Shown here: one piece after another, positions 9,888 to 49,267 of the stretch
How the letters are laid out: the number at the start of each line of letters is the position of its first letter
How positions within the stretch are numbered: the stretch's first letter is position 1
NCBI GenBank assembly: GCA_044892525.1
Contig: CM097887.1
Span: forward strand, 87,708,397-87,772,396
Source: Schmidtea polychroa
Taxonomy: Eukaryota
Reading direction: 5' to 3'
DNA length: 64,000 bases
Program-made: the position numbers and the translations under genes
Notes under the pieces: model-generated
Database searches by the model: none
Told to the model about the DNA's origin: nothing
Seen by the model: only the letters and a program-made list of their open reading frames with translations

Positions 9888-9969
9888 CGAAAATTAAAAT
9901 TTCGTGTATAAAGTGTAGATAATAAATGTATGAAATAATAGTAGTAGTAATAGTGTAATTATTTAGACA

Positions 9970-12418: not shown

Positions 12419-12537
12419 ACCTCCCGTAAAATTAAGGGATGAGGTCGGTGGCTCCCAATAAATGAGATAAAATAACGGTGTAAATAAATTGTAAATAAAG
12501 CCAAGTAATTATTATTGACGTATATGTATATGTAAAG

Positions 12538-22525: not shown

Positions 22526-22546
22526 AATCACTCCGGGGCCCGTTAA

Positions 22547-26961: not shown

Positions 26962-27044
26962 TTCTATAATTATACATATATTCGTTACTGGTACAGTTTC
27001 GTATTTTTATTTACATTTATTTACATTGCTATTTTAGGTTATAT

Positions 27045-27572: not shown

Positions 27573-30500
27573 CTATATACGTGAGCTTGGAGGGCGCTGA
27601 GCATTCCAGGCCTCCACCCACTGTTCCTGCTTGATATTACATGGTCGTTTTACACGATGTTGAAAATTTCTTATTCTGGCCATTTCTAGTTCTCCGTGAT
27701 GCCGTCTATCTTTGATTATTTTTATTGTCCCCCCCGTTATGATTAAAAAGGCCCCTGTTATTATTATGCCGCTGATCCACATCATCTGTTTTATGCTTAT
27801 AATTTCCGCTTTTTCCTTGCTCGTTATTGTTGATATTGCTTCTGTGCTTTTTAGATTACCGTCTTTGCCATTTCCTTTCATCATTCCTCGTATTCTTGCT
27901 ATTTCCTCGTTCATACCTTCCTTTGCCATTTTTTGTATTTTCTCCATCTCCTCCTCGGATACATAATTGTCTTGATGTTTCTCACTGTTTTTCTTGCGTT
28001 TTCCTTGCTCATCTTTTTCATCATCGATTTTTCTTTTCTTCCCCCTTTTCCCAGGGTATCGTCGACATTCTCTCGCTGTATCTTTTCTCCAGATGCATAT
28101 TGTGTATTCTTTTGGAGGTTGTTGCTGTATTACATATTGTAGACAGTCTTCACCTGGTCTTAATCTTGCGATGCAGACTTTGTGTTCTTTTCTTGGCTGG
28201 AGTTGCGTTATCACTACCTCACCTCCTTTTCCCAGGTGTACCTCCTTCCCTTTGACTTTCGTTATTCTCTTTCCTTCTCGATTTCGGTATGCTTCTTGTA
28301 TTCTTACTTCCGTTATTGGTTCTGCATCTTCATTTTTTAACACTAGTCTCTGATAAGCTCTAGACATACATCTTCCTAATATACACCTTTCTTTTAAATC
28401 CCATTCTTCTTTTAGATCCCATTGCTGCTCTTGTACTTGTTTTTTCTTTTCTTGTTTTAGTTCTTCCTCTTTGTTGTCCTTATTTTCCGTTTCTTTGGCT
28501 TCTTTTATCGTTCTCATTCCTCCCTGGGCTGTTATCATTTCCACCATTGTTAGTACGAGTATCATTATCATCATATTTGTCTCCATTTCTTTGTTGGTAA
28601 AAAGTAGGCATACCCTCTGTTTTCCACTATTCGTCTTTTCTTCTTGCTTCATTCGGTTTCTCGGGTTATTTTCCTCTTTTTTCCTACTCGCGTCGTTATT
28701 TTCTTGATTATTCTCCTCTGATTTCTCTTTCTCTTTATTCCCGTTTCGACCTTTTTCATTATTATCGTCGTCTTTATCGTCTTTATCGTCTTTATCTCCC
28801 CCGCTATCGTTTAAAATGTCGTCCTCGACATTTATATCATTCAACAATCTGCGGTATGCCGTTAGCACTCTGTTTCTTGCTAATTTTGCTTCGAGTTCGA
28901 ACTCCTTTCTGCCTGTTGCTACATGTCTCTTTCTATTCCATTCTTTCACTAATTCTCTTAATTGTATCCGACGATGTTTCCCGATTCGCTTTTGTTCGTT
29001 TAGATTCTGCGTGAATTTGAGATCTTCCCTGTTTAATACGATCATTATGATTTTCGGAGTTCCTCCTTTTGTTAGTGTATTTTTAACCATAGCATTTTCT
29101 CCGTTTTCGTAGAACTCATTTATATTTATTGCATATTTATTGCTTTGTGGTATTCTCCATGTTAGCAGCAACTTCATGGCTTCTAAGTTCATCCGTATCG
29201 TGTTCCATTGGAACTGTGACGTGTTTTTACAGATATTTTCTACCTCAGTTCTTGTAGCATTTTTACAAATGAATCTAATCATTTCCAAGTTTGGTTGTAT
29301 TGTTGCCCAATCCATGGCAGAATTTCCTTCGTTTGATATTTCGTCAAGTCTTGATCCCGATCGATGTAGTATATGTAATGTTTTCGGGTGTATATTTGTT
29401 ATGGCTGCATACATCATTGCTGTTTCTCCTTGTTCATTTTTTGCATTAGATTCTTCTCCGAAGTCTCTAAGGATTCTTATGATGGTTATTGCTCTGTTTT
29501 CTTTTGCTGCTAAAATGGCTTGTTGTAATGGTGTTCTTGAGTCTTTTGTTGGTAAGGTGAATGCTAGTGGTATAAATGTTTTTATTTTTCCTATGTCTAG
29601 ATTTGTGGTCTGATCTCTTGCGTAGGTGTGTACTGTTTTGGTTATTTTTGCTAGTATCGCTTCATCGGATAGATCTTGCATTTCTTCAAAGAATACTTCT
29701 TTAGCCTTACGTACTACTATCTCTTGGTCGGAGTTTATTGTCTTTGGTTTACTTGTTGTTGCTATATCGGTTATTGGTTGATCGACTTGTTCCTCAGACT
29801 CTCTTGCTTTTACTTTCTTCCTTTTTATCTTTTTCTTGTTCGAATTGCTAATGCGTTCCTCTGCCGTTAGAACTTGAATAATGCTTAGGTAAGTTTCTCG
29901 AATGTTGTTCATATTTTCCATCATATATAATACACTCACGGTTTCCCAAAATTTTACTTGTACTTTATCGGTAAATTGAGATATAGCTTTTTCGAAGTTG
30001 ATAATTCGTTTTCTGATTAGTTGTTCGTCTTTGTGATTTGAGAACTTTATGCCACGTTGTAGTAGTTGATTTGGAATTTCGAATAGGTGATGTCCTCTCA
30101 TCGCTTCTCTCATCAAGGTATTTTCTCCTTTGGTAAATGTTTCGTTTATATCTACCATATAATCGTTTTTGATCGGGTTCCTCCATGCAATTAGTATTCC
30201 AGTAATTGTTATTAATTTCTCTTTGATTGCAGTTAATAGCCCGTCATACATGTTTCCTATCTCTCTATTATCCTCATATGATAATAGATCTACTAAGATT
30301 ATGAAGGCTTCCGTACTTTTCCCTTCGATTGCATGATGTAGTGCATTTTTCTGGTTGTGGTCTTGTGTGGTTATCTTTGACCCAGTTTCAAGTAATGCGA
30401 TGATAATATCTTTAGCTTTATCCCGATTGGCTGCTATCATTAGTGGAGTGTAACCTTGGTTGTTTTCTTGATCTGTCGAAATGTTACAATCGCGAAATGC

Positions 30501-33500
30501 TTCAATTGTTTCTAATATCTGTTCGTTACTACCCACCTTTAAAAGCTTGTGCAGGGGTGTGTCTCCGTAATGGTCTGTGATCGTGAATAATATAGGCCAT
30601 TGACTTTTAACTACCCTGAGCAATGGGTGTGTTCTTTCTCGGTTTGCATAATTTTCGATCATTGTTAGCAGACCTCCCAATATCTCAAAATCTAATCTGT
30701 CTTCTGCCCATCCGGGCATTTTAACTTTTACTTCCTTTATGATTTTCTCGGCTTCTGATGGTTGTAACCCTAATCGATTACCTGTTGGTTCGTTTATTTG
30801 CTGTAACATGTTTATTCTATACGTTTGTGATCTTGTCGTTAGTGTACGTCCTTCTGGCTGACTGGTGGCGGTTTTCGGAATTGGCTTACATCGTGCAACA
30901 TTTACGTATATTGGTCTTGTAAAAGGGTTGTTCACTAATCGTACTCTTACATTAGTTTCTCCGACGAATAGAATCTCATACGGCCCTTTACCGTTTCGTT
31001 GTAATTTTTTGGTGGTTCCTGGAATTAATTCTGGTGTTTCAATCATCACCCAATCGCCTGTTTGAAACGTATGCTGTTTGACGTTTTTCTTTCTATCATG
31101 TAACTCTTTGTAACTTTCTTGATAAAATTTTATATTCAATCCTGCGGTTTCCCAGATTTCCTGCATTCTTTCCTTGAACTTGGTTACATAATCGTCTATT
31201 TCCATGTATTGTGATATCGGTGGCTGATATTCTAAATCCATTGGCATATTGCATTCTCTGCCGTACATCAACTTGAACGGACTCATCTTTGTGGACGCGT
31301 GAATCGACATTCTGTAAGCCATTAGACATAATTTTATATATTCATCCCAGTCTCGTTGATGACGATCGACATAATTTGATAACATTTGAATCAGTGTTCC
31401 ATTGAATCTTTCTGTCATACCATTAGTTTGTGGATGGTACGGTGATGTTCTTAATTTTGCGATCTTGAAGTAGTTGGTGACTTCGCTCATTATTTCGCTC
31501 ATGAAATTCGTTCCTTGATCCGTCAGTATTTGTTTCGGCGTTCCATATCGACAACATATTTCCTCTACTAATATTTTTGCGATTGTTCTTGCTTTCTGAT
31601 CTGCCATTGCGAATGCTTCGGGGAATTTTGTCAAATAATCTGTGATTACCAATATATATATATTTCCTCTATCTGATTCTGGTAGTGGACCGACTACGTC
31701 CATTGATATCATTGTCATTGGTTCTGCTGGTACTGGCATTGGCTTTAATGGTGCCTTCCATTTTGTTCCCGTGTTTTTTCTGGTTGCGCAAGTTATGCAA
31801 TTTTTCACCCATTCCGTTACATCCTCGGTCAATGTAGGCCAAAAATATTTTTGTTTCATTCGTGCCAACGTCTTTTTAGATGACATATGTCCTCCGAGTC
31901 TTCCGTCATGGTATTGTGTTAGTAGATCTTTACGTCTATTCTCGGGAATGCACATCAGTCTTTTCTCGCCATCCATTATCAATAACCAATCTTTCTCGAT
32001 AATATATCGATGTCGATGTTTATCCATATGCTCCTTCAATTTTTGATCTTTCTCATATACCTCTGCTTTCCCTGTTTTCACATATTCAATGATTTGCTTC
32101 AACTCTGTATCCTCTTGTTGGTCTTTCCGTAATTGGCAAAAATCTAAATCTTCTGCTACCATCAGACATATTCGTTGCATTTCGTGATCTACTAAATCTG
32201 GAAAGATAAATCTGGACATACAATCCGCATTGGCATTCGCTCTTCCCGCTTTGAATTTTATGAACGGTGAATATTCTTGTAACTGCATTGCCCATCGCAT
32301 CAATCTACTTGAAGCTTCTTTGTGTTGACCAAGCCATACTAATGGTTGATGATCCGTGGTGATACATATTTCGTGTCCCCATAACAAATATCGAAAATGT
32401 TTAATTGCTTGTATGATTGCTAACGCTTCTCTCTCGGTTACGGAATAGTTTTTCTCGTGCTTTTTAAACGTTCTACTGTAGTATCCAATCACTCTTTCTT
32501 TTCCTTCTTCATCCAGTTGTCCTAATATTGCTCCGGCTGCATATCCACTTGCATCTGTTGCTAATAGGAACGGTTTCTTGAAATCAGGATGTACTAGTAT
32601 TGGGGCTTCAATTAATTTATCTCGCAATGTCTCAAACGCTTTTTGTTGTTCTGCACCCCAAATAAATGAAATATCCTTTTTCACTAATTCCTGTATTGGT
32701 TTCGCAATACCTGCATAGTTTTTGATGAATTTTCGATAATATCCGCATAATCCGAGAAATTCTTGAACTTGGGTGACAGTTTTTGGTGCTGGACATGTTT
32801 TTATTTTTTCTATGTTTCTTGGATCTGGTTCTTTGCCTTTTGCTGACACTATGTGTCCTAAGAACGTAACCTTTTCTTTTGCCCAATCACATTTGGATGG
32901 TTTAAGTTTCAGTTTCCATTGTCGTAATCGAACGAACACGTTTCTGATATCTTCCAAATGTTGTTCGAAAGTTGCTGAATATATTAATAAATCATCAATA
33001 TATACCATACACTGCTTGATCCCGTGTGTGACAAAATTCATACATCTCTGGAATGATGCTGGGGCATTGGTCAGTCCGAACGGCATTTTCCTGAATTGGT
33101 ATAGATCTCGGCCCAATGTGAATGCTGTTTTCTCTTTGTCTTCCTCCTTGACTTTGATCTGCCAATATCCACTTTTCAGATCTAAAGATGTAAAATATGC
33201 GGCCCCCTGTAACATAAGTAACATCTCATTGATGTCTGGTAAAGGGTATGTGTCTCTTTTTGTTACTGCATTTAATTTCCGATAATCGATACAGAATCTC
33301 TGAGTACCGTCTTTTTTCTTCACCATGACTACTGGAAATTGCCATGGCGAACAACTTGGTTCGATCACTTGTGCATCTAGCATTTTTTGTACTTCTGCTT
33401 CGGCTATCTCTTTTTGCTTCTCTGCTAGTTTGTATGGACGTAGTGCGATTGGAGTTTCGTCTATTAATGGTATTGCGTGTAGTGTAACATCGCATGCTCC

Positions 33501-36500
33501 CAAATCTAAATCCGAAATTGCGAATATATCTTTATATTCTATCAATAATTGTTGAAGTCTCTCCTTTTCTTTTTCCGTTAGCAAGGTGCTATCAATTATC
33601 CATAATTCGTCCGCTTTCGTTGTTTCGTTGGTGATTTTTGGTAATTCGATGTCTATCATGGGTGTCAATCTACCCAATCTTTCATTTTCATATATGATCT
33701 TGTCTTCTTCCTCGAAATTTGTGATGTTAATTGGTATTTCCCCGTCTTCATTTATTGTTATTATTTCTCTTGCTAATGGTAATTCTCGTCGTTTTTCGAA
33801 TGATTTGCTTGGCTCAAAAATGACTTCTCCTTCCATTCCTGCATCCACTTTTATTTGACATATCATCTGTGATTTTGCGGGTACAATTATTTTCTCCGGA
33901 CATCTAATTATTGCGTTCATCTTGCATATTCTACCCATTTTGTCTTTTAGACACATTGTTGTTAAATCGATTACTACTTCCTTAAACAATTCCGGCATTA
34001 AATCCGTTCCGATTATACATGGTTCACTCAGTTTGGGTATCACCGCTAGATACGTTTCAATTTCGTTATCCTGATATCGTAACGTAGTCCACCATCTTCC
34101 TACTACGTCTACGGTTTCTTTACTGCATGCAATAATATGGATAGTTGTTTGTTCGATATCTTTCCAACATTTACTGGGTATTTGGTTTATTGCTATTGCT
34201 GATACGTTTGCTCCGGTATCTATCATTGCGCTTGTCTCTTTCCCGTTGATTTGGATCATGACTGTTACTGCCGCACCTCCTGGTGAACTCATCACTGCTA
34301 TCGTTCTTACGTCGTCCGCTTGGTCTACACTTTTCGTTCTTCGGGTCGGCATATAGTTCATCCCTGGTTGACTTGGTAACTGTGGATACATATTTTGTGT
34401 CATGGTCAAAGCTGTTTGTTGTCCAACGATATCTGGTGGTATATAACTTCCGTTGGCTATCCAGGTATTTGTTTTTTCTTTCTCCCAATATGGTGCTGTT
34501 TCTATTGGCTTTTCATTCGGGTTTCTACTTGGATATGGGTATTTGTCATTCCCGTTGTCGTCATCATCACTATCGCTGCTGTTTGATCGATTCCTAAATC
34601 TGTCTAAGAATTTTGGTTTGTTCTTTTTCAGTTGCGTCCTTGTTGCTTCATCATACATTGTTTTCCGAAATCGTCTACCGACTTCCTCGTCAGTTCCTTT
34701 TATTTTTGTCAGTATTTTGATCAATCGTTTTATTCTATGTATGTCTTTAGAATGACCGTGCAACACCATTGTTTTTGCCAAAAATGGTAGAAAGCCTACT
34801 ATCAATTTCCAATTTACCTTCTTTTCTCTCTTATAGATATCAAAACACGCTAACATTTGAGTCAATATTACTCTAACTATCTGGATAATAAGAATGATTC
34901 CCAATATTCCTGCCATCATTTGACCGAACACTAGAAATCTTCCCCACATTGCTTTCATCATGTTTGACGTGGCTTGTTGAAAATGATCAGGTGACAATAA
35001 TAGTTCGTAATTGGGGCCTGACTGGAAATTCGTTCCCCCAGTTATGGTAACCATATTCGATAGAATGGATTCCCGTCTTGCTGGGAATAATACGTTTAAT
35101 CGTGCCGTTTCTAAATCCTCTGGTGAGTACATACCTGCTTTTGACACATCAATTGGTTTGAAATCTTGTTCTGTTGCGAGTTCTATTAGTCCAAACTTTT
35201 TAGGCTCTTGTACTTCGGTTTTTACTGGTAACATTATCCATTTCCCATCGGGTTTTTCATATAACGGTCCGTATGCATTTGAACAGTTAAAGGTGTTCGG
35301 ATAAAATCCAATTGGGTTCATGATTCGAGTGACGGGTTGAACGAATCTGTTTCGCCCTTTGTAACTAATTTCCAACTCGTTTGCGCATTTCCCTGGTGGA
35401 ATTGTGGGCTTTCTTGGCAGTCGCGCAAATGTCTTGGTACATGCATATGTATACATTACCTCTCCCACCATTCTACCAAAATGTCCATCCGGTAACGGGA
35501 GTGATGGCATTGTGTTATCTGGGTGTGTTATTGCGATGGCTAATTTTGTTTTTAGTATCTCTTTATTCAATGAACAGTCATTTTGTATAAGATCGTAATA
35601 CACTTTTTGCATTGTCGTTTGTCCTCGGTGGAACAAGAAGTCCATCTTATTATTGGCATACAGGTACAATTTTACGTCCTCCGTTGCTACCTTTCCCACT
35701 GCTCGGTCTATTACTTGCCTTGACATGTAGATACCTGCGTAGTTCGTCCGGTATACTATACTGTCACATTTGGTGGTCTCTTTTTCTCTAATGAATCTCA
35801 TGCCGATGTCTGGATCATCGGTAATTAATGCCGTTGGTGTTTTTTGGGTTGTGAGTCTCTTTTCTTTGGGGGATGGCGGAACTGGTTTCCCATTTCGCAT
35901 CCTTACGTTTCCATTCTCTTCATCGTCATCCTCGTTTTCGTAAATTTCTCCTTTTACTTCATTGAATAGAGCACTTTTTAACAATTGGAGTCGGCATTTT
36001 TGGGTGTTAGCTTCATATATTATAGTCGAAATCCCCGTTCTACACACGTTTTCCGTAGCTCTGCATGCTGGGTTGGTTTTCATTTGATAGTTGTTTGCGT
36101 CGAATTGTGCTTCGTATTCCTTCAACTCCACTGTGTAGGACTCAATTACTACTACTCCTGATATCACCTCTCCTCTGATCGTATATGTGCCTCCGTTACA
36201 TGATCCATCCGTTGATTTTACTCGTCCGGCTACATAGATACTTTCCGTCTTGATCATTCCGCTTTGTCCGTGTATTGTTACTCCATCCCTGATTCTCATC
36301 GCTCCGGTTCTAAAAAGCTCTTTACAGTCTTCCCGTTGTATAGGTACTATTTCTTTATCTAATCCAGGTAATATGAGGGTTGAATATGAGTATTGTCCAC
36401 AGTAATATGCCAACACTTTCTTCGATACTACGCATTCTCTAGCTTGCGTTCTAATGAAATCTGATTCTTGGTATACGTGATAGGAGACTTTCTTCTTTAC

Positions 36501-39500
36501 TATATCTAATTTATTCGGAGATGCCTGTCTACATTCCTCTATATCTCTCAGGGAGTATCTTTCTCCTATTATCGAATTGTCACAGTCGTAAATTGTAAAT
36601 CCAGCTGCTCCACTGGTGCAGAGCATCCATATCATCATGGTCATCATTAGTGAATTAATCGACGCTTTTCTGCTGGCTGGGTCTTTCAATGGCAATTCCC
36701 ATTCCAGCTCGTTTAGTAATTTCTTCAACCGAATTTGCATTGATCTCTCTTGCTCGTTTTTTCGTGGCGCTTGTATGAGTCTTTTCCACCCACCGGCGCG
36801 GATAATATGTGGTTCGATTGTATTTTCGATGATTGTAACGGTCATTTCTACATGATTTGCGAATTGTTTGTTAGGTATTTTCCTTGCTGCTAATCCCATC
36901 AAATTGTACATTAGATACGTTAATACTACTAAATGATGTTCGTCGTCGTTTGCGTTTAAAGTTAATTGTTCAATTACTCTTCTTGTCTCTTCCCAATCGG
37001 TTTTAGTGGTTTTTGTCTTCTCTTTGATTAATTTCGGAATTATTCCGGATATTGTATTCCATAGTTGTCTGGCGTCTACGCTTGCTACTTTTCGTTGCCA
37101 TAACCGTCGCAATTGTGGGTTCGTTATTATTAGCATATCTTTTACTAGCTCTCGTATCCATTTTTCGCCTCTTTCGATAGTTGGCTGGGCCTCTTTTAGA
37201 TCCCACACTATTTTATCCAGTTTCTCTAATCTGACTTGTCCTTGTTCTTGTTTCAGTTGTTCTCTAGTTTTAAATTCCGGTTTTTCTCCTTGCTTCTTGG
37301 GTCTCCCTTTTGCCCGTTTTTCCATCATTGTTCCGGCTTCCCTTGTATTTTCATAATTCGGGTTTCTCTCGTTATCCGTTCTTGGCAATGAGCTATCGTT
37401 GTTTCTCAGCCATTCGTTCCATTCGTCTATTATTTTGTCCGTTTGACCTTCTGGTGTTGCTTTCGTTGGTCCTTTCTGTCGTTGGAATTGTTCGTCGGTT
37501 TCGGTTTCTGTTGTATTATCGATAATCTCCTCGATACTCAGCTTATTTGGCTGCTGATAGCTAGTTGACGGTTGGCTTGTTGTCCATATTTCGGCTCCTG
37601 TCGGCCATCTTACCAGAATTGGTGATCTTTCTCCAGCTCCTTCATCGCTGTCTTCCAATATAATTTCCTCGATTTCCTCGGTTTCATTCGTTTTACTTGC
37701 CACTTTGTTAGGGCTTGGTGTACTCAAGCTACCTTTCGTAGGTTTACTGGATTTGCTCTTCCTTTTAATCGGTTTTCCCAATGTTTCTGCCATTGTCAAT
37801 ACATTGATCTCCCCCAATCTCATGGGTGTTATTCCGACATCTGCATTATCATCCAACGATTTTCCGAATAGTTGTAGGTGAAATGGAGTTTCGTATGCTA
37901 ATTTCTTTTTTAACTCTCTGATCTTTGTTGTTGGATGTACTTCTGTATCCTCAATGCTTTTGTCGGGATACTTGACTCGGATACGATACCTTTCCTGGGT
38001 ATCTTGTGCCCATTCTTGGTTTCTCCATTTCCTAATAATTTGTTCTAGCTGTTCTGGGTACCATTCGTTATATTGTCTGTATTCCTCAATCGCTTTCGCC
38101 ATTTCTCTTAGATTGTGGATATTCTCTGATGTCTTTAGGATGATGTTAGCCAATGCTATTACTTGACGTTTTTGATTTTTTGTTCCCGTTGCTAAGATAT
38201 CACCTAATTGTTTATATCTTTCCTTCTCTTCTCGTTCTCGAGCTTCCATCGCTTCTTCGCTGTCCATATCGGCATATTCGCGTTCTTTCTTTCTCATCGC
38301 ATGAATATGTCTGGTTTCCGTTTCACTTTCTGATGTAACATCCGTTTCGCTTTCGTCGTCCGATGTCGATTCTATTTCGTCCTCTTCGTATTTTGGAGGT
38401 TCATCTTCCTCTTCTTCTGATTCGCTTTCTATCTCACCAATGTCTGTTTCCACGAAAATCCCTTTCCTGATTTCCCATTCTTTGTTTTCCGCATTCCACG
38501 TCCTTTCCCATGGGGTTCGTCTGCAGGATCTAACACTTAGTTTCTTTATTTTTCCTTGAAGCTCTTTTTCTTTTAGCCACTGTTGATGAATTTCAATTAT
38601 CTCTACTGATTTTTGATATAGCGTTTTCATCCTGTCTCGTATTTCTTTCTGGTATGTTATATCTCTTGTTCGGAATTCGTCCATGGGCAATATTCTGATG
38701 ATTTGATGATTATCCCACATTCCCATTTCGCTTAGCGAGGTGTCGTCTTCGGCCCGTAATATTATTTTATCGTACATCATGACTACGTCATCTATCATCC
38801 CGTCGCTACTCTCGCTTCGTACTTTTTCCGTTATCTCTTGGTTTATCTTGGTTACTAAGTCATCCACCGTACTCTGATTACTCATCTTTATTCGTCGTTT
38901 CTCCTCGTTTGGTAACCATATGGTTATTTCTAATTTCTGCGGTTGCGTTTCTTTCAACCTTCCATATTTGTGGATCAAATTTATGGTTCTCCAATCGCTC
39001 ATCCTGAGCAATTCTGTATCTCGTAATCGGCTCATTAGTTCATGCATGTCTGGAGTTCGTCTTGCTATGAGTAAATCCCAGTTATCTTCGACTTGTTCTT
39101 GAATTTGTTTGATTAATTTATCTAGATTTCGTCGCAAGGTGCATTGTTTTATTTGTTCCAGCTTCAGCTTGATGTTAAAATCATACTCGGCCTTGGCGTC
39201 TTTAGCCCATTCGTGAATATTTGCTGGTTGCTTCTCTTTATACAATTTCAATATTTGAGTTTCTCCTGGCCAGATCAATGCATCTATTAGGTGCATGTCT
39301 GGCTTAATTTGTTCTCCTTGATATTGATATAAATACTCTTTCTTTCTCGAGCTGCCCAAATGTTCTCTTATCCAATCAAAAAGCTCGTCTGTGACTGCAT
39401 TTTTTATCCATATTCTCTCGAGTCCTTTACTCGTTCCGATTTTTATTACATAGCGTGTTGTCTCCGCTTGTTTCATTTTTTCCATATACTTCTTTATTAT

Positions 39501-42008
39501 CGCTTTTTCCTCGTTTGGTATTAGATCTTTTTCGTTTCTTTCTAGTTTCATTATCTTTTGTAAGAAGCGTTTATATGGTATAAGGTCGATGAACTCCTGG
39601 TTTCTTACTACCACTGGAAGTATTTCCTTTACTTGTTTTATCGCTTCTTCTCTTTCTTTTCTCAATTTCATTTCGATATTCTCGTCTTCGCTTTCGCTTG
39701 TCACGTCGCTTTCTCTTTCATCCTCATCTGCTCCGATCTTTTCTCTTAGTTGGTCGATATTTTCATTTAACTGTAACATTTCTCCACCAAGGCTACTCAC
39801 ATAATCCTCATCGTCATCTGTTGACAACACCTTCTTTGTTGTCCTCATCATATTAATTCGTAAATTTTTCATTCTTGGTACTTTCTTTAACTTTTTGTTC
39901 TCGCGTATCGTTAGCTCCTCTGAGTCTAATTCTCGTATCATATTATGCTTTAGATGATTAATCTGTTTTCCATTTTCGTTATTTTCTGCTTCTGCTTCTG
40001 TTTTTGTTTGCTCATTTTCTCTTTCGATTTTATCTTTTATCTTTTTCCAAAATATTTTCTGAATTCTCTGATTTCCTTTTAGCGGTGTTGTTGAATTTTC
40101 CTTTTTTGCTGCTGGAATTGTTTCTTTCGGTTTCTCTGGTTCGCTCATAGGTACAACTCTTGGATTTTTACCGTAATTGTAACAATATTGCTCCTTTATC
40201 TCCTTTACCATCCTCATCATATTTATTCGTAGTGGTTGTTCTTGTCGCTGCTGAATTCGCTCTCTTTTTATCCTTTCTTCTTCAGCTTGTAGTCTTTGCC
40301 ATTCTTGTGCATGTTGTTGCACTTCATAATTGTTAAGATTCTCGGTGCTTCTCATCATGCGTATATTCTGGGTTTGTTGTGGTACTTGCTCTTGTCTCGG
40401 TCTCATCATTTGTTGCATCATCTGCTTCATTTGTGAAATTTCTTGCATCACATTCATTTGCTTTCCCTCACTAGGATTACTTTGTCGTTGCGGATTTGGT
40501 GCATAGTTATTATTTCGCTGTGGTGGTCGTTGCTGTTGGCTCCTTTCTCGACAGTCTCTTGAGATATGACCTGGTTGCCCGCAGTTAAAACATCCTCTCG
40601 ATTGGCATATATTTTCCGTGTGTCCTCGTCGTCCACACCTATTGCAATTTGCGTTTCGGTAACAATCTCTATCCCAATGTCCTGGTTTACCGCATGTTCG
40701 GCATTGTTTGTTATCGTTCATATTTCGTCGATTATTAAAGTTGTTCCCATTGTTCGAGTTGTTGCGTTCACTGTTATTCCCGTTTGATCGTCCTTGTGGT
40801 GGTTTGAAAATTTGATGCGCACCTGGTATAAACTGATTCATCTTTGGTTCATGATTATTGTTATCTCCATTTTCCGTTTTCACCGCTGCTGTTGCGATTC
40901 TTCCTTCCTCTTGCATGACATTCATTTGTGCCGGGAGGTGTAGTTCGCATCTTGTGGCCCAATCTATAGCTTCCTCTAGTGTTTTACACATTTGACATCC
41001 CACCGAGGCCCTTACCTCTTCTCGGCGTAGTCCTTCTATGAAGTACCCAATTAAGTTTTCCTCCGGCAAGTTTCCGTTCATGGCCTTCTTTGCCAATCTT
41101 CGCAATTCACTTGCGTATAACGTAATTGACTCGTTTGCTCTTTGTTTTCTACTTGCCAGTTCACCTAACGCTTGATTTATCGGTTTGCTGGCTCCGAATG
41201 TTTTTCTCAAAAATGTTTTGATGTTTTCCCAATTGTCTAATTTCGTATTTCTTTCTTTTGCTTCCAGATACACTTCGAGTGCGCTATCGCACAAAAACAG
41301 AGGCATTCGTTTACTAATTGCTTCGGATGTCCATCCACACACATCGATATAGACTTCAAAATTGGTTATGAACGTTGCCAACTTGTTCGCATTCCCGTTG
41401 AACGGTTCGCCTCTAAATTTTTCTTTATATTCGTCGGTTTTTGCTACATTCATCTTGATTGGTTCTTGAAATGCTAAAATTTCTTTTAAATTTTCTAATG
41501 ATGTAGCTAAATTATGGACGGATAATTCTTCTGTTGACCCGGTTAGGTTGTTTGTTATATCGGATAGACTTTCTCTACTTCTAGATCGACTGGGCGTATG
41601 TCCGGCTGTGGGGTTTTCTTGATCGTATATCGGTGTTTTGTGGGGTCTTTTTGCTCCTTGTGATATTCCTCTCTGCTGCCTAAATGATCGTCCTCTTTTG
41701 AGTTGATCTAATTCGTCTCCTGAAAATAATACGTCTCCTGGCTTACTTGAAGATCTAAGGTTGGGTTTATCCGTGATTTTCCTTTTACTCTTTTCTGTCT
41801 TTTCACGTGGATTTTCTACGGTTAGCGTCTGCTGAATTGGTCGAGTTCGGTTTTGATATTGTCTTCCTTTGTGCGGGTTCTGAATTGCTTTTCCTGGGTT
41901 GTTTGTATATTCTCTGGATTCCTCTTGAGCTGGTTCTGAATTGACTTGGTTGGATTGATGTCTACAATGAAAATATGATATCGTGTTGCCTTTGCTTACA
42001 CGAATCAA
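27573..42008 (-). CDS. Single 4,811-codon polyprotein: Gag - UBL x3 - Bcl-2-like - Env glycoprotein - PR - RT - RH - IN - ANK x2 - second membrane protein
   Basis: Uninterrupted frame carrying all the motifs listed below. The annotated start is TTG and the first ATG is codon 186 (41453), so the true start is uncertain. Confidence 0.95.
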   Translation of the reverse strand: MIRVSKGNTISYFHCRHQSNQVNSEPAQEESREYTNNPGKAIQNPHKGRQYQNRTRPIQQTLTVENPREKTEKSKRKITDKPNLRSSSKPGDVLFSGDELDQLKRGRSFRQQRGISQGAKRPHKTPIYDQENPTAGHTPSRSRSRESLSDITNNLTGSTEELSVHNLATSLENLKEILAFQEPIKMNVAKTDEYKEKFRGEPFNGNANKLATFITNFEVYIDVCGWTSEAISKRMPLFLCDSALEVYLEAKERNTKLDNWENIKTFLRKTFGASKPINQALGELASRKQRANESITLYASELRRLAKKAMNGNLPEENLIGYFIEGLRREEVRASVGCQMCKTLEEAIDWATRCELHLPAQMNVMQEEGRIATAAVKTENGDNNNHEPKMNQFIPGAHQIFKPPQGRSNGNNSERNNSNNGNNFNNRRNMNDNKQCRTCGKPGHWDRDCYRNANCNRCGRRGHTENICQSRGCFNCGQPGHISRDCRERSQQQRPPQRNNNYAPNPQRQSNPSEGKQMNVMQEISQMKQMMQQMMRPRQEQVPQQTQNIRMMRSTENLNNYEVQQHAQEWQRLQAEEERIKRERIQQRQEQPLRINMMRMVKEIKEQYCYNYGKNPRVVPMSEPEKPKETIPAAKKENSTTPLKGNQRIQKIFWKKIKDKIERENEQTKTEAEAENNENGKQINHLKHNMIRELDSEELTIRENKKLKKVPRMKNLRINMMRTTKKVLSTDDDEDYVSSLGGEMLQLNENIDQLREKIGADEDERESDVTSESEDENIEMKLRKEREEAIKQVKEILPVVVRNQEFIDLIPYKRFLQKIMKLERNEKDLIPNEEKAIIKKYMEKMKQAETTRYVIKIGTSKGLERIWIKNAVTDELFDWIREHLGSSRKKEYLYQYQGEQIKPDMHLIDALIWPGETQILKLYKEKQPANIHEWAKDAKAEYDFNIKLKLEQIKQCTLRRNLDKLIKQIQEQVEDNWDLLIARRTPDMHELMSRLRDTELLRMSDWRTINLIHKYGRLKETQPQKLEITIWLPNEEKRRIKMSNQSTVDDLVTKINQEITEKVRSESSDGMIDDVVMMYDKIILRAEDDTSLSEMGMWDNHQIIRILPMDEFRTRDITYQKEIRDRMKTLYQKSVEIIEIHQQWLKEKELQGKIKKLSVRSCRRTPWERTWNAENKEWEIRKGIFVETDIGEIESESEEEEDEPPKYEEDEIESTSDDESETDVTSESETETRHIHAMRKKEREYADMDSEEAMEAREREEKERYKQLGDILATGTKNQKRQVIALANIILKTSENIHNLREMAKAIEEYRQYNEWYPEQLEQIIRKWRNQEWAQDTQERYRIRVKYPDKSIEDTEVHPTTKIRELKKKLAYETPFHLQLFGKSLDDNADVGITPMRLGEINVLTMAETLGKPIKRKSKSSKPTKGSLSTPSPNKVASKTNETEEIEEIILEDSDEGAGERSPILVRWPTGAEIWTTSQPSTSYQQPNKLSIEEIIDNTTETETDEQFQRQKGPTKATPEGQTDKIIDEWNEWLRNNDSSLPRTDNERNPNYENTREAGTMMEKRAKGRPKKQGEKPEFKTREQLKQEQGQVRLEKLDKIVWDLKEAQPTIERGEKWIRELVKDMLIITNPQLRRLWQRKVASVDARQLWNTISGIIPKLIKEKTKTTKTDWEETRRVIEQLTLNANDDEHHLVVLTYLMYNLMGLAARKIPNKQFANHVEMTVTIIENTIEPHIIRAGGWKRLIQAPRKNEQERSMQIRLKKLLNELEWELPLKDPASRKASINSLMMTMMIWMLCTSGAAGFTIYDCDNSIIGERYSLRDIEECRQASPNKLDIVKKKVSYHVYQESDFIRTQARECVVSKKVLAYYCGQYSYSTLILPGLDKEIVPIQREDCKELFRTGAMRIRDGVTIHGQSGMIKTESIYVAGRVKSTDGSCNGGTYTIRGEVISGVVVIESYTVELKEYEAQFDANNYQMKTNPACRATENVCRTGISTIIYEANTQKCRLQLLKSALFNEVKGEIYENEDDDEENGNVRMRNGKPVPPSPKEKRLTTQKTPTALITDDPDIGMRFIREKETTKCDSIVYRTNYAGIYMSRQVIDRAVGKVATEDVKLYLYANNKMDFLFHRGQTTMQKVYYDLIQNDCSLNKEILKTKLAIAITHPDNTMPSLPLPDGHFGRMVGEVMYTYACTKTFARLPRKPTIPPGKCANELEISYKGRNRFVQPVTRIMNPIGFYPNTFNCSNAYGPLYEKPDGKWIMLPVKTEVQEPKKFGLIELATEQDFKPIDVSKAGMYSPEDLETARLNVLFPARRESILSNMVTITGGTNFQSGPNYELLLSPDHFQQATSNMMKAMWGRFLVFGQMMAGILGIILIIQIVRVILTQMLACFDIYKREKKVNWKLIVGFLPFLAKTMVLHGHSKDIHRIKRLIKILTKIKGTDEEVGRRFRKTMYDEATRTQLKKNKPKFLDRFRNRSNSSDSDDDDNGNDKYPYPSRNPNEKPIETAPYWEKEKTNTWIANGSYIPPDIVGQQTALTMTQNMYPQLPSQPGMNYMPTRRTKSVDQADDVRTIAVMSSPGGAAVTVMIQINGKETSAMIDTGANVSAIAINQIPSKCWKDIEQTTIHIIACSKETVDVVGRWWTTLRYQDNEIETYLAVIPKLSEPCIIGTDLMPELFKEVVIDLTTMCLKDKMGRICKMNAIIRCPEKIIVPAKSQMICQIKVDAGMEGEVIFEPSKSFEKRRELPLAREIITINEDGEIPINITNFEEEDKIIYENERLGRLTPMIDIELPKITNETTKADELWIIDSTLLTEKEKERLQQLLIEYKDIFAISDLDLGACDVTLHAIPLIDETPIALRPYKLAEKQKEIAEAEVQKMLDAQVIEPSCSPWQFPVVMVKKKDGTQRFCIDYRKLNAVTKRDTYPLPDINEMLLMLQGAAYFTSLDLKSGYWQIKVKEEDKEKTAFTLGRDLYQFRKMPFGLTNAPASFQRCMNFVTHGIKQCMVYIDDLLIYSATFEQHLEDIRNVFVRLRQWKLKLKPSKCDWAKEKVTFLGHIVSAKGKEPDPRNIEKIKTCPAPKTVTQVQEFLGLCGYYRKFIKNYAGIAKPIQELVKKDISFIWGAEQQKAFETLRDKLIEAPILVHPDFKKPFLLATDASGYAAGAILGQLDEEGKERVIGYYSRTFKKHEKNYSVTEREALAIIQAIKHFRYLLWGHEICITTDHQPLVWLGQHKEASSRLMRWAMQLQEYSPFIKFKAGRANANADCMSRFIFPDLVDHEMQRICLMVAEDLDFCQLRKDQQEDTELKQIIEYVKTGKAEVYEKDQKLKEHMDKHRHRYIIEKDWLLIMDGEKRLMCIPENRRKDLLTQYHDGRLGGHMSSKKTLARMKQKYFWPTLTEDVTEWVKNCITCATRKNTGTKWKAPLKPMPVPAEPMTMISMDVVGPLPESDRGNIYILVITDYLTKFPEAFAMADQKARTIAKILVEEICCRYGTPKQILTDQGTNFMSEIMSEVTNYFKIAKLRTSPYHPQTNGMTERFNGTLIQMLSNYVDRHQRDWDEYIKLCLMAYRMSIHASTKMSPFKLMYGRECNMPMDLEYQPPISQYMEIDDYVTKFKERMQEIWETAGLNIKFYQESYKELHDRKKNVKQHTFQTGDWVMIETPELIPGTTKKLQRNGKGPYEILFVGETNVRVRLVNNPFTRPIYVNVARCKPIPKTATSQPEGRTLTTRSQTYRINMLQQINEPTGNRLGLQPSEAEKIIKEVKVKMPGWAEDRLDFEILGGLLTMIENYANRERTHPLLRVVKSQWPILFTITDHYGDTPLHKLLKVGSNEQILETIEAFRDCNISTDQENNQGYTPLMIAANRDKAKDIIIALLETGSKITTQDHNQKNALHHAIEGKSTEAFIILVDLLSYEDNREIGNMYDGLLTAIKEKLITITGILIAWRNPIKNDYMVDINETFTKGENTLMREAMRGHHLFEIPNQLLQRGIKFSNHKDEQLIRKRIINFEKAISQFTDKVQVKFWETVSVLYMMENMNNIRETYLSIIQVLTAEERISNSNKKKIKRKKVKARESEEQVDQPITDIATTSKPKTINSDQEIVVRKAKEVFFEEMQDLSDEAILAKITKTVHTYARDQTTNLDIGKIKTFIPLAFTLPTKDSRTPLQQAILAAKENRAITIIRILRDFGEESNAKNEQGETAMMYAAITNIHPKTLHILHRSGSRLDEISNEGNSAMDWATIQPNLEMIRFICKNATRTEVENICKNTSQFQWNTIRMNLEAMKLLLTWRIPQSNKYAININEFYENGENAMVKNTLTKGGTPKIIMIVLNREDLKFTQNLNEQKRIGKHRRIQLRELVKEWNRKRHVATGRKEFELEAKLARNRVLTAYRRLLNDINVEDDILNDSGGDKDDKDDKDDDNNEKGRNGNKEKEKSEENNQENNDASRKKEENNPRNRMKQEEKTNSGKQRVCLLFTNKEMETNMMIMILVLTMVEMITAQGGMRTIKEAKETENKDNKEEELKQEKKKQVQEQQWDLKEEWDLKERCILGRCMSRAYQRLVLKNEDAEPITEVRIQEAYRNREGKRITKVKGKEVHLGKGGEVVITQLQPRKEHKVCIARLRPGEDCLQYVIQQQPPKEYTICIWRKDTARECRRYPGKRGKKRKIDDEKDEQGKRKKNSEKHQDNYVSEEEMEKIQKMAKEGMNEEIARIRGMMKGNGKDGNLKSTEAISTITSKEKAEIISIKQMMWISGIIITGAFLIITGGTIKIIKDRRHHGELEMARIRNFQHRVKRPCNIKQEQWVEAWNAQRPPSSRI
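30940..34300 (-). other. pol: Pol core of element B: protease, RT, RNase H, integrase
   Basis: DTG at 34212-34220, YIDD at 32991-33002, LATDAS, HHCC, D-D-E, GPY; Ty3/Gypsy domain order. Confidence 0.97.
34760..36660 (-). other. Envelope glycoprotein domain resembling chuvirus-type (class III) fusion proteins
   Basis: Signal peptide then GFTIYDC..YSL.D..EC, C..KKVLAYYCG, DC..LFRTG, DGSCNGGTY, Cys-rich ectodomain, and C-terminal MWGRFLVFG..AGILGIILII TM. Family recognised from memory, not by search. Confidence 0.75.
40551..41420 (-). other. Gag domain: retrotransposon capsid region and three CCHC zinc knuckles (40551-40703)
   Basis: FNGNANKLATFITNFE..YASELRRLA..FIEGL; CRTCGKPGHWDRDC, CNRCGRRGHTENIC, CFNCGQPGHISRDC. 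Confidence 0.93.
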
Positions 42009-43773: not shown

Positions 43774-44253
43774 CTAACTGAAGTAGATTGTGTGCTTCTC
43801 TTTTATTACACATGTGCACATAGAACAAAGGATTAAACTGGCGGCGCATTCGTCACAATGGCTAAGGTGCCCACAAGGTAGAATCAGAATTTTGACAGGT
43901 CGCATCTTGCAAATGTTACAAGTTCTCAAGGCCGCTGCTTTCTCTACTATTGATGTTCGTATCCGCTGAGACAGAGTTTTGACTCGTTCGCGTATCCTCA
44001 CATATTCGATGTTCAGAGCGGGGTCGTCGAGACGTTGCTGAAACCATTGGTAATGAATAGACAAGTCGATATCGGTATTTGTTGATCCTAATCTGTCGGT
44101 TAGAAAGTTTTGTTTGGATATCAGCAGTGCGTTGTGGCTTTGTTGTTCTAGCAGTTCTATTTGTTTCAGTTTTTCTCTTAATGTTTTTATTGAATCATTT
44201 TCTATTTCGACGAACCGGCTTAGCTGTTGTAGATGTTGTCTAGCTTCTGACAT
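43774..44253 (-). CDS. Upstream ORF: coiled coil plus C-terminal IAP-type RING (159 aa)
   Basis: CNICKMRPVKILILPCGHLSHCDECAASLILCSMC; lies between PBS and gag. Confidence 0.85.
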   Translation of the reverse strand: MSEARQHLQQLSRFVEIENDSIKTLREKLKQIELLEQQSHNALLISKQNFLTDRLGSTNTDIDLSIHYQWFQQRLDDPALNIEYVRIRERVKTLSQRIRTSIVEKAAALRTCNICKMRPVKILILPCGHLSHCDECAASLILCSMCTCVIKEKHTIYFS

Positions 44254-44687
44254 ATCTAAATGAATGTGTTGTTATTATTTTGTTCCTGCTGGTATTAAAA
44301 ATAATATTATTATATTTGTATTTAGTATTCGTTGACTTCTGTGCGTTAGTGTTTTAACTTTTGTATTTTATTCGATCTTTGAAGTTCCCCTTTCATCTTT
44401 TCGCTTTAATCACTTACTTTCTCCGCCCCCCCTTTTATTTTAACCAGTTAAAATTAACCACAATAACCAATTCCCGTTTTCTTTTCTCATCATACTTCAT
44501 CACATTCATTCCAACTCATTTAGGTTCGTTTCATTCACCACATGCTCTATTTCAAACTCAGACAGTTCGTATCATTTTATTGCACTATAATTCATTTCAG
44601 CCCCGATTCCGTTTTTATCATAATTAATTAAATTGTTAATCTAACACATCATAACACAAAAATAGACAATCAAACAAATCAATATAG

Positions 44688-44705
44688 ATCCCGGCTGAGC
44701 CCCCA
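44688..44705 (-). promoter_or_regulatory. Primer-binding site, tRNA-Pro-like, 7 nt from the LTR end
   Basis: TGGGGGCTCAGCCGGGAT, 16/18 to the classical Pro PBS TGGGGGCTCGTCCGGGAT. Confidence 0.8.
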
Positions 44706-44712: not shown

Positions 44713-47700
44713 TGTTGGCGTATGTGGAGAAGAAAAAAAAATTATACATGCCTTTCCATCACACCTATCAAGCATCATGGCTCCGTTATACATTTTCTAC
44801 ACATACTCCAAATGATTGATTGCATATTCCCACATATGAGCCCATGGTGATGTTCCATGTTGGTGCTGCTCACACGGGTCGGAAAAGGTTAGCAGGTGAG
44901 CCCCTGCCTTAGGACTACTCCTAACCCTTTCTCAGTTCGGGTCCCACGGTGCCTTAGAAGGACTTACCCATATACATGCGTGTCACTCGGTCTGATCCTG
45001 GTCCAAAGGAACAACCTTCAACCTTAATTATCTTCATTCCGCAGCATTATCTCATCTACTCTAATTGCACAAACAAATATATGAAAGCTCGACAAAACTA
45101 AAATCAAACAGAAAATTTTATTGGCACTGAAACGATAAAAATATCATTACTACTAACAGATCAACAACAGTCAAAAAGATATAACATTAGCAACATTCAC
45201 GAGATAATTTACAACTCAATGAAGAGGAAATCAAGCTCAATTTTACATCACATTAAACAAAGTTATCCCCATCGGCCAGTATCTCATCTATGTCGACCGG
45301 TAATCGGCTATCTACAATGTGTTTGATGCCCTCAGCTGGAACAATGCGGAAGACTTCCTTTGAGGGGATTGAATGGGAGGACGTTATCTCTTGGATTTTT
45401 GATTTCGCCGCCGATAAGGACGTCTCGAGTGCTGTCATCGCATCTCGGCGTTTTTGGTTCTTCTCGGCTCGAGTTGGCCGTTTCCGTTTGCGGGTAGTCG
45501 GGGGTTTTTCGGTGTTCGTGGTACCGATTGGTGCTACCAAGATGGGAGCTACGATGGGATCAGTAGGTCCACCTATCTTTGGCTGGTGACATGACAACAC
45601 CGGGGGTGGAATGGGCGGCAGTTGTGAGCCGTGCCCCTGGCAGTGCGAGCCGGAAGATGTAGGAGACGGGTGGTGACGAGGAAAAACATTCGTCCCATCC
45701 AGAACGGGGAATTCTCGCACCCGCTTAGCCAATTCTGCCTCCGTATATACCTTATGGAGGGCTTCTGACTGTGCTTTGATGGTGAGCCGCTGACAACGGC
45801 TTTCCTCTAGCAGGCTGTCCCTGCAATGCTCTAATCGGAGAATTTTCTTGCGTTCCTCTTTCATTTGTGGCGGGGAGAACCACGTTCCTTCATAGAGATC
45901 AATTCTCTTTTTGAGAGCCCCGATATATAAGTGGAGTTGGGCGATATCCGCGTTCTTGTCCGCACAAGAAAAACACGGGCGAAGTTCTTTGGCGTTGTTG
46001 GACGATGTAGCCATCTAGAAAATCAATCATTGTTTATATTTACTCGAAGAAACCTCTATCAGTGTGAAGAAAAATCAAATTTTTGGGCATGGTTTTGGAG
46101 TTTGATCAAACATACCACCCAACGATGACCCACACACTTCTTCATCCATCTCTATACGCAGTCATTCAGTTGCAAACATTCAAATCTCTTCACCTGATTC
46201 GTGTAATTTAAGAAAAGGAAACGGGGATTCGTATACCAAAAATTCTTTCTACACAAACCTCGCCCTTTGAGTTTAATTTCGGATGGGCCATTCCCAGGTA
46301 AAACCCGTCTTTTACTTTATCCCCTTCAACCTTGTTCCCATTAGTATATTTTAATTAAGAATTTTTGCCGATATCATTATGGCAATTCGTCGAGGTAGGC
46401 CTGCCTAACATTACAGAGAAATAATTCACGGCGACGGAATAGATTATTTATGTTTTTATCTCGTTCAAAATTATGGAATTGATTGTGTAATCAGTTGAAA
46501 ATTCAGCTCTAATCTACATCTAATTAATTCCAATAACGCGTCGAAAATCGTCGTCATGGAAAACGTTTACTTGTGATTATGCATTATGATTGACGGTGTA
46601 GGTGTGTCATTACTCCTGGTGGTATCTGTAACTGTATGTTGGCTATCTCCGCGAATGATGGTTTATGCTGTTATAATAAATTATTGTATATCGAGTTGTG
46701 TAGGGGAAATCCATCCCCTTACTTCATCCTATTATCTCGCTATTCTAGAGAAATTTATACCATCATGCCGCTATTACATCACCAAAATCGTTGATTTCCT
46801 TTTACACTGCCCTATGCATATTTGACTGTGGTGCGTGTGTATGTGCATGCTCAAGTCGGAATATTAGCGGTTGCGTAATAGATTCCTCAAATAAGCAGCC
46901 GTAGATGAATCGAAAAATCAGATTAATCAATCTGAGTGGGCGACAACTTCATAGATTATTGGGTAAGCTCAACAATATCATCTAATTTCCTTTTACGATA
47001 TTAATTCAGATCAATGACTATCAGCTTATTCATTTGACATTTTCCCAGAAAAGTTAACATGTTATCTCCTTCTCCAGGACGTTATCAGATATCTCCTGTC
47101 GACTAACTCTACGCAGGCCAATGCAAATCAACTGATTTCGTTATCGTTGACAACTACTGTCTGCGGGCTCGAAGTAAGAATTTTGATAATTTCACTACAA
47201 GATGGTTACTTCCCTGTCAGCGAGAGATTCTTTATCACTGGCATTGGTGACTCAAGGACGACAATCAAATCGTAAGAGTACATCGACAATGGATGTAGCC
47301 GCTAACATCATGACGGCACAAATCAGACAGAACCTTGCAAACGCAGAGCGTCACCGAAAAATCGTTGGATTTACTTGCAATCTATGGTCGACACCGTTCT
47401 TTCCTAACTACGTCGATTGACCGGCTGAATATCACGAAAAGAATTTTCCTCCTATCTATGTGGATTATCATCGAATCTGTACGAACGTCACTGCCTATCT
47501 CGCTCTGAATTGTCTGCATTCGGAATTCAAATCATCTCTACATCTACTGGAAATCTCGATTTAACTAAATGAACCGATGGTACGCTCTACAGACGATCGC
47601 GCTTGATGAAGGAACGGTCATTTATTAACTGGATGTTCCACCTACTGAGTTTCTTCACCCCTCACGACACACCCAAGAAGGCATTCATTGCTGCCACCTC

Positions 47701-48949
47701 CTTGCACCGTCATGAGGGACCAATCAACTCTTTTCCATTCAATCAAATCAACAATATAATAATCAAACTGAATGATAGAAAATGCATAAATAAAATTTAC
47801 CCGGCGACCATATCATTTGGATCTCCGAGTATGATGTTGCTCCTCCTACATGATCGAAACCTCATCGTCTCCTTGGTGGATCTCTAATATGACAAATATC
47901 ACTCTCTACAAATATCACATTCCCTTTTCAGCATGTTCGTGATTTCTTATGCATACCAACCTTTCCACGGTGGTGTCCTCTACTGCAGTGCAATTCCAAC
48001 TCGTCCACATCATACTGGGAGCTCTCAGATGGTACAGTCGTCGGTACCATGAAGAAAGGCAACTTTTCATTTAAATAAATTTATTATAAGAAATTGTTTT
48101 ATTATATTTATTATGATTAACTAAATTAAACTAATAACCATAAATAAAACAACTGTCGAGGCATACCTTGAGTTTCGAAAACTGAAGTTAAATCGGTTGA
48201 ATTTAAAATTTTTCCCGAATGGATTTGTAGTTTGGCCTCTATATATTTCTTCCTCGGTTTGGTTTGGTAATCTCTGAACTAGTTCGCTGTAGGATAATTA
48301 AAGGTTCCGAAATCTGTCAAGTCTGTAGAAAAAATTTTTTAAAAGTGGTAGTATATAACGAACCGAAGTTTACCTGTAGAAAAAATTTTTTAAAAGTGGT
48401 AATCTACAGATATTTTCCGTTCCTTATATATTATTTTTCGTCCAATCAGGACACGACTTGTTTGTATTTTTACTATTTATTATTATTTTTATGTTTTTTA
48501 TTATAATATATTAGATTTTAATGACTTAACTTATTTCCTATTATTATTTTATTTATTTTCTTATTTTTATTATTTTCCTCCTATTTTTCCTGTGGATTTA
48601 TTGCTACTTTATTGTAATATAATTTTTTGTTTTAATTAGACTTAAAGATAGTTTTATTTTTTATTTATTTCTTAAATTTCTCTTTTATTTGTTGTCACTT
48701 TTTTACTTATTTTATTCTATTTCATCTGCTGGGTCCTAAATCGCTTTATTTCTAAATCTCAAGGGGTTTATTGGGTTTTATTTAGTTTGTTTTACTTATT
48801 CTTATTCTCTTATTGATATTTTATTGTTCCTTTTTGATTTATTAGCGAGAATTTGATGGTACTTTATATTTTTATTTTATTTCGTTTATTTTTCAAGGAT
48901 TACCTTTCTATTCGCTCCAGTTTTCGAAACTCCACGTTTTAGCCCAACA
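44713..48949 (-). repeat. 5' LTR of element B
   Basis: Copy of 18289-22525, adjacent to the PBS. Confidence 0.97.
45253..46014 (-). CDS. LTR-encoded ORF, 5' LTR copy
   Basis: Same 253-aa translation as 18829-19590. Confidence 0.75.
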   Translation of the reverse strand: MATSSNNAKELRPCFSCADKNADIAQLHLYIGALKKRIDLYEGTWFSPPQMKEERKKILRLEHCRDSLLEESRCQRLTIKAQSEALHKVYTEAELAKRVREFPVLDGTNVFPRHHPSPTSSGSHCQGHGSQLPPIPPPVLSCHQPKIGGPTDPIVAPILVAPIGTTNTEKPPTTRKRKRPTRAEKNQKRRDAMTALETSLSAAKSKIQEITSSHSIPSKEVFRIVPAEGIKHIVDSRLPVDIDEILADGDNFV

Positions 48950-48953
48950 AAAA

Positions 48954-48983: not shown

Positions 48984-49267
48984 CTCACCGGGAGTGACAA
49001 TGCGGAATGATATAATTAGTGATATTATGAGGTGCCGGATATTTTTTTTTGTTTTGTTCTTGTAGTAATTAGGACAATTTGTAAAATTTGTTTTATTATT
49101 AAAACATTTATGTGATTGTTCGGCGTGCACATTTGTCGTACTATAGATCAGCTTTTGGACACTACATATAAGTCTCATTTCGTATGGGGTGTCTCCAGGG
49201 ACGGGATGACCCCCCCCCCCCTTTTACTCTTCAGTCCTAATTTTATAATCAAATTGCCTTTATGCAC

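Follow-up and report, generated by a model that had tools for sequence, protein, structure and literature searches.

Planarian Burro LTR retrotransposons have a BCL2-like motif with an env directly after it in the same frame, as described in section 7 of Arkhipova and Yushenova (PMC6431247), where the finding of the motif in Burro-2, -3 and -4 is credited to Grohme et al. 2018. According to the same section, the region between BCL2 and protease is env, placed in frame between gag and pol; the article further gives the Burro elements a size of >30 kb and equates Burro1 with GYPSM1 (Grohme 2018, Jurka 2007). In the available portions of PMC8532177 and PMC11410931, Burro is mentioned without the domain. 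Burro elements have also been linked to cell death, as Burro1 B-IAP protects planarian stem cells from caspase-mediated apoptosis according to PMC13465017, which cites Lee et al. 2026. A Bcl-2-like domain before env in Burro elements is thus already known and has been in print since 2018-2019, and the first-pass annotation of the present DNA, which knew of none in an LTR retroelement, was mistaken on this point. In the literature we found no study that tested what this Burro domain does, although Grohme 2018, Lee 2026 and their supplements may say more.

The window, the stretch of 64,000 nt of Schmidtea polychroa DNA that we analysed, contains a giant LTR element at 18289-48950 (30,662 bp, delimited by LTR comparison; Table 1). 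With its LTRs of 4.24 kb, it shares the size of >30 kb, long LTRs included, of the Burro elements, which are giant Ty3/gypsy elements of Schmidtea mediterranea. Because the two LTRs are identical over 4,240 bp, the element must have been inserted very recently. AAAA is found at either end and is a possible 4-bp target-site duplication, and the primer-binding site presumably resembles the 3′ end of tRNA-Pro. By Pfam, the 4,811-codon frame encodes, in this order, Gag, CCHC knuckles, a weak Bcl-2 match, a Monjiviricetes-type fusion glycoprotein, protease, RT, RNase H, integrase and ankyrin repeats; a strong transmembrane helix (34863-34919, hydropathy 2.53) ends Env and precedes the protease. The Burro elements likewise have a single ORF with Gag, a BCL2-like motif, env, PR, RT, RH, IN and ankyrin repeats, MATH/TRAF and RING accessories, and a mononegavirus-glycoprotein-like env in frame between gag and pol. 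By this described architecture, the window element is a Burro-type retrotransposon. It is not Burro1, since MATH occurs solely in its downstream accessory ORF and the ORFs scanned gave no BIR match.

Table 1. Features of the giant element, in window coordinates.
Feature	Position	Strand	Basis or remark
5′ LTR, TG...CA	44713..48950	-	100% identity to second LTR across 4,240 bp
3′ LTR	18289..22526	-	
Probable primer-binding site, begins TGGGGGCTC, 7 nt inside from 5′ LTR	44688..44705	-	
Accessory ORF with terminal C3HC4 RING	43774..44271	-	PF13920 E=7e-8
Uninterrupted frame, 4,811 codons stop to stop; first Met 41453	27573..42008	-	ORF listing
Gag capsid region; CCHC knuckles then downstream	41022..41303	-	PF03732 (aa 236-329) + PF00098
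Predicted Bcl-2-fold domain, all-helical, ORF aa 1611-1752	36753..37178	-	AF2 model, structural match range, profile match to Bcl-xL
BH1-equivalent, DDEH replacing NWGR	36936..36947	-	HMMER alignments to Bcl-xL, columns of 18 rows
BH2-like motif IEPHIIRAGGW	36786..36818	-	GGW in 14/16 rows covering motif
Internal Env signal sequence; possible membrane anchor for upstream fragment	36591..36662	-	Hydropathy scan
Env: Monjiviricetes-type fusion glycoprotein ectodomain + transmembrane helix	34863..36599	-	PF24664 E=6.8e-72
Protease, reverse transcriptase, RNase H, integrase (Ty3/gypsy order); ankyrin repeats downstream	31431..34262	-	Pfam
Accessory TRAF-like ORF: RING, TRAF zinc fingers, MATH	25573..27006	-	Pfam

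A second, divergent giant element (window 1-13524, +, and locus L061) lies in the opposite orientation, with MATH inside its polyprotein and a Bcl-2-like domain of its own. Its TRAF ORF is interrupted by a stop, its long frame is broken at two places, and it carries a BIR-RING gene recognised by Pfam (8706-9887). This neighbour fits Burro1/GYPSM1 better than the window element does. Several further features were recorded in the window. An 80-bp tandem repeat occupies 42713-43192 in the 5′ leader of the window element, upstream of the long ORF. Each LTR contains a 253-codon ORF (45253-46014 and 18829-19590, -), and an ORF similar to these lies just beyond the element (49116-49742, +). Near the C-terminus of the polyprotein, two further hydrophobic stretches (28518-28574 and 27714-27770, -) have the look of another signal sequence and a last membrane helix, so the ankyrin region may be followed by a second membrane protein. 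Elsewhere, a 324-codon ORF (54226-55200, -) resembles an FkbM-type methyltransferase by eye and is probably a host gene.

The first-pass annotation had proposed a Bcl-2-like domain hidden in the polyprotein just before the Env signal peptide. The residues it quoted are indeed present, in frame and on the minus strand, within the long frame (27573..42008): TRRVIEQL at 36986-36963, DDEHHLVVL at 36947-36921 and IEPHIIRAGGW at 36818-36786, within ORF aa 1675-1741. Its segment, 36770-37215, lies close to the range of the structural match (37178-36753, model residues 22-163). Next come a hydrophobic stretch at 36662-36591 and the start of Env, FTIYDC, at 36599. It had also remarked that NWGR is not kept, and DDEH does align to NWGR, both in HMMER alignments to Bcl-xL and in the columns of 18 element-type rows. 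The Trp and Gly of BH1 are missing in every one of these rows (18/18), so that the canonical NWGR is absent. Asp or Glu stands at the position of the NWGR Gly in 13/18 rows. A Gly-to-Glu change at this position in Bcl-2 abolishes Bax binding. The position of the NWGR Arg holds Arg or Lys in 13/18 rows and His in the window element. The BH2 pattern W-I-x-x-x-GGW is found in the window element as HIIRAGGW, with His in place of the first Trp.

Downstream of BH2, a signal-like hydrophobic stretch precedes the YDC/FDC start of Env in 11 of the 11 proteins examined (Kyte-Doolittle 1.03-2.14), and the distance from the BH2 Trp to YDC/FDC is 45-73 residues in all 11. In the window element, the stretch begins ~46 residues past BH2 and is weakly hydrophobic, with a best 19-residue Kyte-Doolittle mean of 1.40. 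Its Env signal has a basic n-region, a short hydrophobic core and small residues preceding FTIYDC, the cleavage site being judged by eye.

Profile searches gave a weak Bcl-2 signal from the single sequence and a clear one from the family. PF00452 was the sole Pfam family matched by the 167-aa piece (E=0.022, 15.7 bits), below the gathering cut-off of 31.4; relatives scored 16.4-28.8 bits and only the fragment P0004 reached 31.4. With a single sequence, phmmer against PDB sequences returned 0 matches. A profile built from 7 host and Maverick Bcl-2 proteins located the domain in the whole ORF (7.9 bits, aa 1693-1743), a score reached by 0/200 block-shuffled ORFs (best 3.3), the reversed ORF scoring -3.3. 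With the same profile, scores of 12-45 bits were obtained for 16 of the 18 forward element rows, and no reversed row exceeded 7.5. Alignment A3 comprised these 18 element-type rows without any cellular Bcl-2, 15 of which matched PF00452 at E<=0.1. One of its lineages, L062, was found with the Bcl-2 HMM itself, and because PF00452 recruited it, the early alignment was biased. The A3 profile gave 92 matches at E<=0.001 among PDB sequences, the best 60 of which were all Bcl-xL or Bcl-2, with E=5.6e-7 for Bcl-xL. By hhalign, the element alignment matched the 7 host/Maverick Bcl-2 proteins with a probability of 96.7.

The predicted structure agreed with the profiles. An AlphaFold (AF2) model was built from A3, with cellular Bcl-2 excluded (pLDDT 74.9, pTM 0.71), and in VIA-align the top 35 rows were all Bcl-2-fold proteins, the first clearly unrelated row having a Z of 6.0. 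The best match was ASFV A179L (Z 13.6, rmsd 2.6 over 136 residues, model residues 22-163). Among the PDB matches listed by Foldseek, 33/33 belonged to the Bcl-2 family; no match in the PDB or viral library had E<=0.001, and the viral library was led weakly by viral Bcl-2 proteins. The single-sequence AlphaFold model (pLDDT 51) was uninformative, with no Bcl-2 among the 50 rows listed by VIA, and a search of the ESM Atlas yielded nothing but phage clusters, scoring 0.80 or below with low recognition, and no lead to Bcl-2. The claim of Bcl-2 homology is therefore supported by both profile (Bcl-xL E=5.6e-7) and structure (Z 13.6). As modelled, the domain is a helical bundle round a central hydrophobic helix that can be superimposed on Bcl-2 proteins, which places it in the Bcl-2 fold superfamily, and the segment is predicted to be a whole Bcl-2-fold domain of ~140 residues. 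As it falls below the Pfam cut-off and lacks the BH1 motif, we do not class it as a canonical Bcl-2.

Six LTR lineages in the host genome carry the domain before Env: the window element, the Burro1-like neighbour L061, L062/L086, L073/L082/L094, L083/L084 and L087. This position was verified by Pfam in the window element, L062 and L094, is indicated by a homologous domain before Env in L061, and was read directly in L083 and L087. Identity between lineages is only 15-30%. The L062 domain matches PF00452 at E=1.8e-6; that of the Burro1-like L061, 34% identical to the window domain, gave no Pfam match on its own. Shorter lineages with frames of 3.05-3.3 k codons also carry the domain, and no ankyrin or MATH was found by Pfam in the stretches scanned. 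A search of 1.84 billion representatives returned 12 matches, 8 of them relatives, and no cellular Bcl-2 at E<=0.001; the other 4, ankyrin-repeat proteins, were dropped as false. In four of the relatives the sequence runs on into Env, and in a fifth the domain is preceded by a zinc knuckle and a ubiquitin-like domain; the remaining three are fragments (P0004, P0005 and P0011, which are short, have no gene context and were placed by similarity alone). P0005 had no match in the host genome at 1e-8. Word-index protein searches yielded 0/417 candidates among long proteins, 1/376 (P0002) in the 'longer' set and, with alignment A2, 2/3,575, both of which had been found before. A metagenome search left 1 locus out of 46 candidates, and this was rejected because it lay on a bacterial contig and matched off frame.

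The tree comprised 23 rows, among them 13 element domains, every one of which fell to one side of a 99/99 branch; 5 of the 18 element rows had been omitted (3 partial, 2 near-duplicates). The element profile scored the host gene L042 and the Maverick Bcl-2 genes at 24-39 bits, versus 8-15 for NWGR-type and Bak/Bok-like host genes, so that the scores lean to a divergent gene of the host and to the Bcl-2 genes of the Mavericks as putative kin. Since the tree leaves the sister group open, we claim no donor despite this lean. The Maverick/Polinton-like elements are multi-copy and carry small Bcl-2 genes of their own (L067:5789-6139 with L092; L068:4775-5233 with L091), one type apparently intron-bearing and the other intronless, which adjoin a TBP-like ORF. 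At these loci, Bcl-2, TBP and an A32-type ATPase were confirmed by Pfam, and polymerase, integrase and capsid-like ORFs were recognised by eye. Seven near-identical NWGR-type Bcl-2 coding stretches are clustered at G000:C4:89.95-90.83 Mb (L031-L037).

The 781-Mb genome contains 874 candidate copies of the domain, mostly on four large contigs. The 150 copies that were scored are all 93-100% identical, and 4/150 contain a stop. Two abundant subfamilies, with frames of 4,811 (window) and 4,732 codons (L072), share ~95% protein identity at a dS of 1.1-2.8; such identity with near-saturated synonymous sites indicates that they have long coexisted under strong purifying selection. Between them, the dN/dS of the domain is 0.02 (dN 0.047 at dS ~2.2, synonymous sites being nearly saturated), and its flanks are alike, with 0.02 for the linker, 0.05 for the upstream region and 0.03 for Env. 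Other within-lineage pairs gave a dN/dS of 0.23-0.42 from few changes. The domain is under purifying selection.

We favour the reading, to which we give a probability of about 0.5, that a Bcl-2-family domain, now highly diverged, was captured into the Gag-Env-Pol polyprotein of a Burro-type LTR retrotransposon, and that it acts as a membrane-tethered cell-death inhibitor, held by the Env signal, alongside the Burro IAP and TRAF-like genes. Standard membrane-protein topology would put the Gag...Bcl-2 part and Pol in the cytosol and the Env ectodomain in the lumen, and the Env signal peptide could plausibly double as a tail anchor. The polypeptide upstream of the internal signal would remain cytosolic, the signal would thread Env into the ER, and signal peptidase would cleave ahead of the Env ectodomain. 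The leftover signal helix would then retain the Gag...Bcl-2 fragment on the cytosolic membrane face, and the element protease may subsequently release the Bcl-2-fold fragment from Gag. This fragment might counteract the death of cells that express the element, for instance through a non-canonical groove that binds Bak/Bax/Bok-like or BH3-only proteins of the host, and would complement the IAP and TRAF-like genes of such elements.

Several observations favour such a survival factor. The proteins that match the fold best promote survival and bind BH3 helices, and the fixed place before Env, the 99/99 branch and the low dN/dS point in the same direction. There are also precedents: deerpox DPV022, which has no recognisable BH motifs, binds Bak, Bax and Bim (PMC11209288), and stem-cell protection has been reported for Burro1 B-IAP. 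The basic residue kept at the NWGR Arg position in 13/18 rows adds to this. On the other side, the flanks have a dN/dS as low as that of the domain, the hydrophobicity of the anchor helix is low (1.40), no Foldseek match reached E<=0.001 and the Burro1-like domain alone has no Pfam match. Control of Bak and Bax is usually mitochondrial, not at the ER, which also counts against a survival factor held there. Finally, the loss of the BH1 Trp and Gly in 18/18 rows weighs against it. PMC9027176 ascribes importance in Bcl-2-family interactions to the NWGR Gly and Arg, which matter for BH3 contacts and are altered here, the Gly position being acidic in 13/18 rows and the Arg position His in the window element.

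The loss of the canonical groove motif across the family would also fit a fold repurposed structurally, as the cytosolic head of an Env leader that couples Gag/capsid to the Env-bearing membrane, an alternative that we consider unlikely yet worth serious attention. The model for it is the Env leader peptide of foamy viruses, which couples Gag/capsid to the Env-bearing membrane. It agrees with the spacing of 45-73 residues ahead of Env in 11/11 proteins examined and with the retention of the domain in the shorter lineages that lack ankyrin and MATH by Pfam in the stretches scanned. However, a contact with Gag or Env is putative, adjacency to the signal helix is equally explained by use as a tail anchor, and such elements repeatedly carry other death or ubiquitin regulators (Pfam; PMC6431247).

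Rather improbable, too, is an inhibitor of signalling that does not bind BH3 helices and perhaps works with the TRAF-like protein of the element. Poxviral A52, B14 and A46 inhibit innate-immune signalling in this manner rather than bind BH3 helices. These three and N1L are among the fold matches, NWGR is lost and the element also encodes a TRAF-like protein, but the structural scores of A52-type proteins are well under those of the Bcl-2 proteins that bind BH3 (Z 6.5-8.8 vs 12-13.6) and the GGW of BH2 is kept in 14/16 rows. That the domain is a non-functional relic, carried merely as part of an essential reading frame, is very unlikely: its dN/dS is no lower than that of the flanks and identity between lineages is only 15-30%, but helical fold, BH2 and position are preserved across that very divergence, and a dN of 0.047 at a dS of ~2.2 is not needed by a spacer. 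Least credible, and largely refuted, is a coincidental likeness of amphipathic helices with GGW at their end and no Bcl-2 ancestry, which could appeal to the single sequence lying far under the Pfam cut-off with 0 phmmer matches, to the uninformative single-sequence model and ESM Atlas search and to the recruitment of L062 by a Bcl-2 HMM, but which is contradicted by an alignment-based model that matches over 130-137 residues, including helices beyond the BH1-BH2 sequence match, and by the shuffled (0/200) and reversed controls (best 7.5 against 12-45 bits for 16/18 forward rows).

Within the preferred reading of a captured domain acting against cell death, it is possible, if doubtful, that the env-bearing Burro-like elements go back to one ancient Bcl-2 capture, perhaps from a divergent planarian/Maverick group, with the Env signal serving as both translocation signal and tail anchor and with a groove that lacks NWGR. 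If true, a reverse-transcribing element would possess a functional viral-type Bcl-2, and transposons would supply planarian stem cells with survival signals by a second route besides B-IAP. An anti-apoptotic activity would mean that viral Bcl-2 mimicry, a trait of large DNA viruses, also occurs in reverse-transcribing elements, and it would bear on the reported mutualism between Burro1 and stem cells. To the published description the present data make modest additions, namely a predicted fold of ~140 residues, its occurrence in at least six LTR lineages and in relatives elsewhere, a single branch and the family-wide loss of BH1; with the domain boundaries given, function is directly testable.

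By predicted fold and context, the domain appears viral-Bcl-2-like. The modelled helical bundle is the same as that of ASFV A179L, Hydra Bcl-2-4, Bfl-1, Bcl-xL and EBV BHRF1 (Z 12.3-13.6, rmsd 2.6-3.1, ~130 residues). With cellular and DNA-virus Bcl-2 proteins it also shares the BH2 motif and a hydrophobic helix downstream, whereas identity is 9-15%, NWGR is lacking, the domain sits in a retroelement polyprotein and the helix is an Env signal. The poxviral proteins M11L, DPV022, F1L, A52, N1L, B14 and A46 resemble it in combining a Bcl-2 fold with eroded BH motifs, but match with a lower Z (6.5-9.5) and are encoded by stand-alone genes of large DNA viruses. Burro1 B-IAP is likewise a Burro-borne apoptosis regulator, but as a BIR-RING caspase inhibitor it is encoded by a separate ORF and has no Bcl-2 fold.
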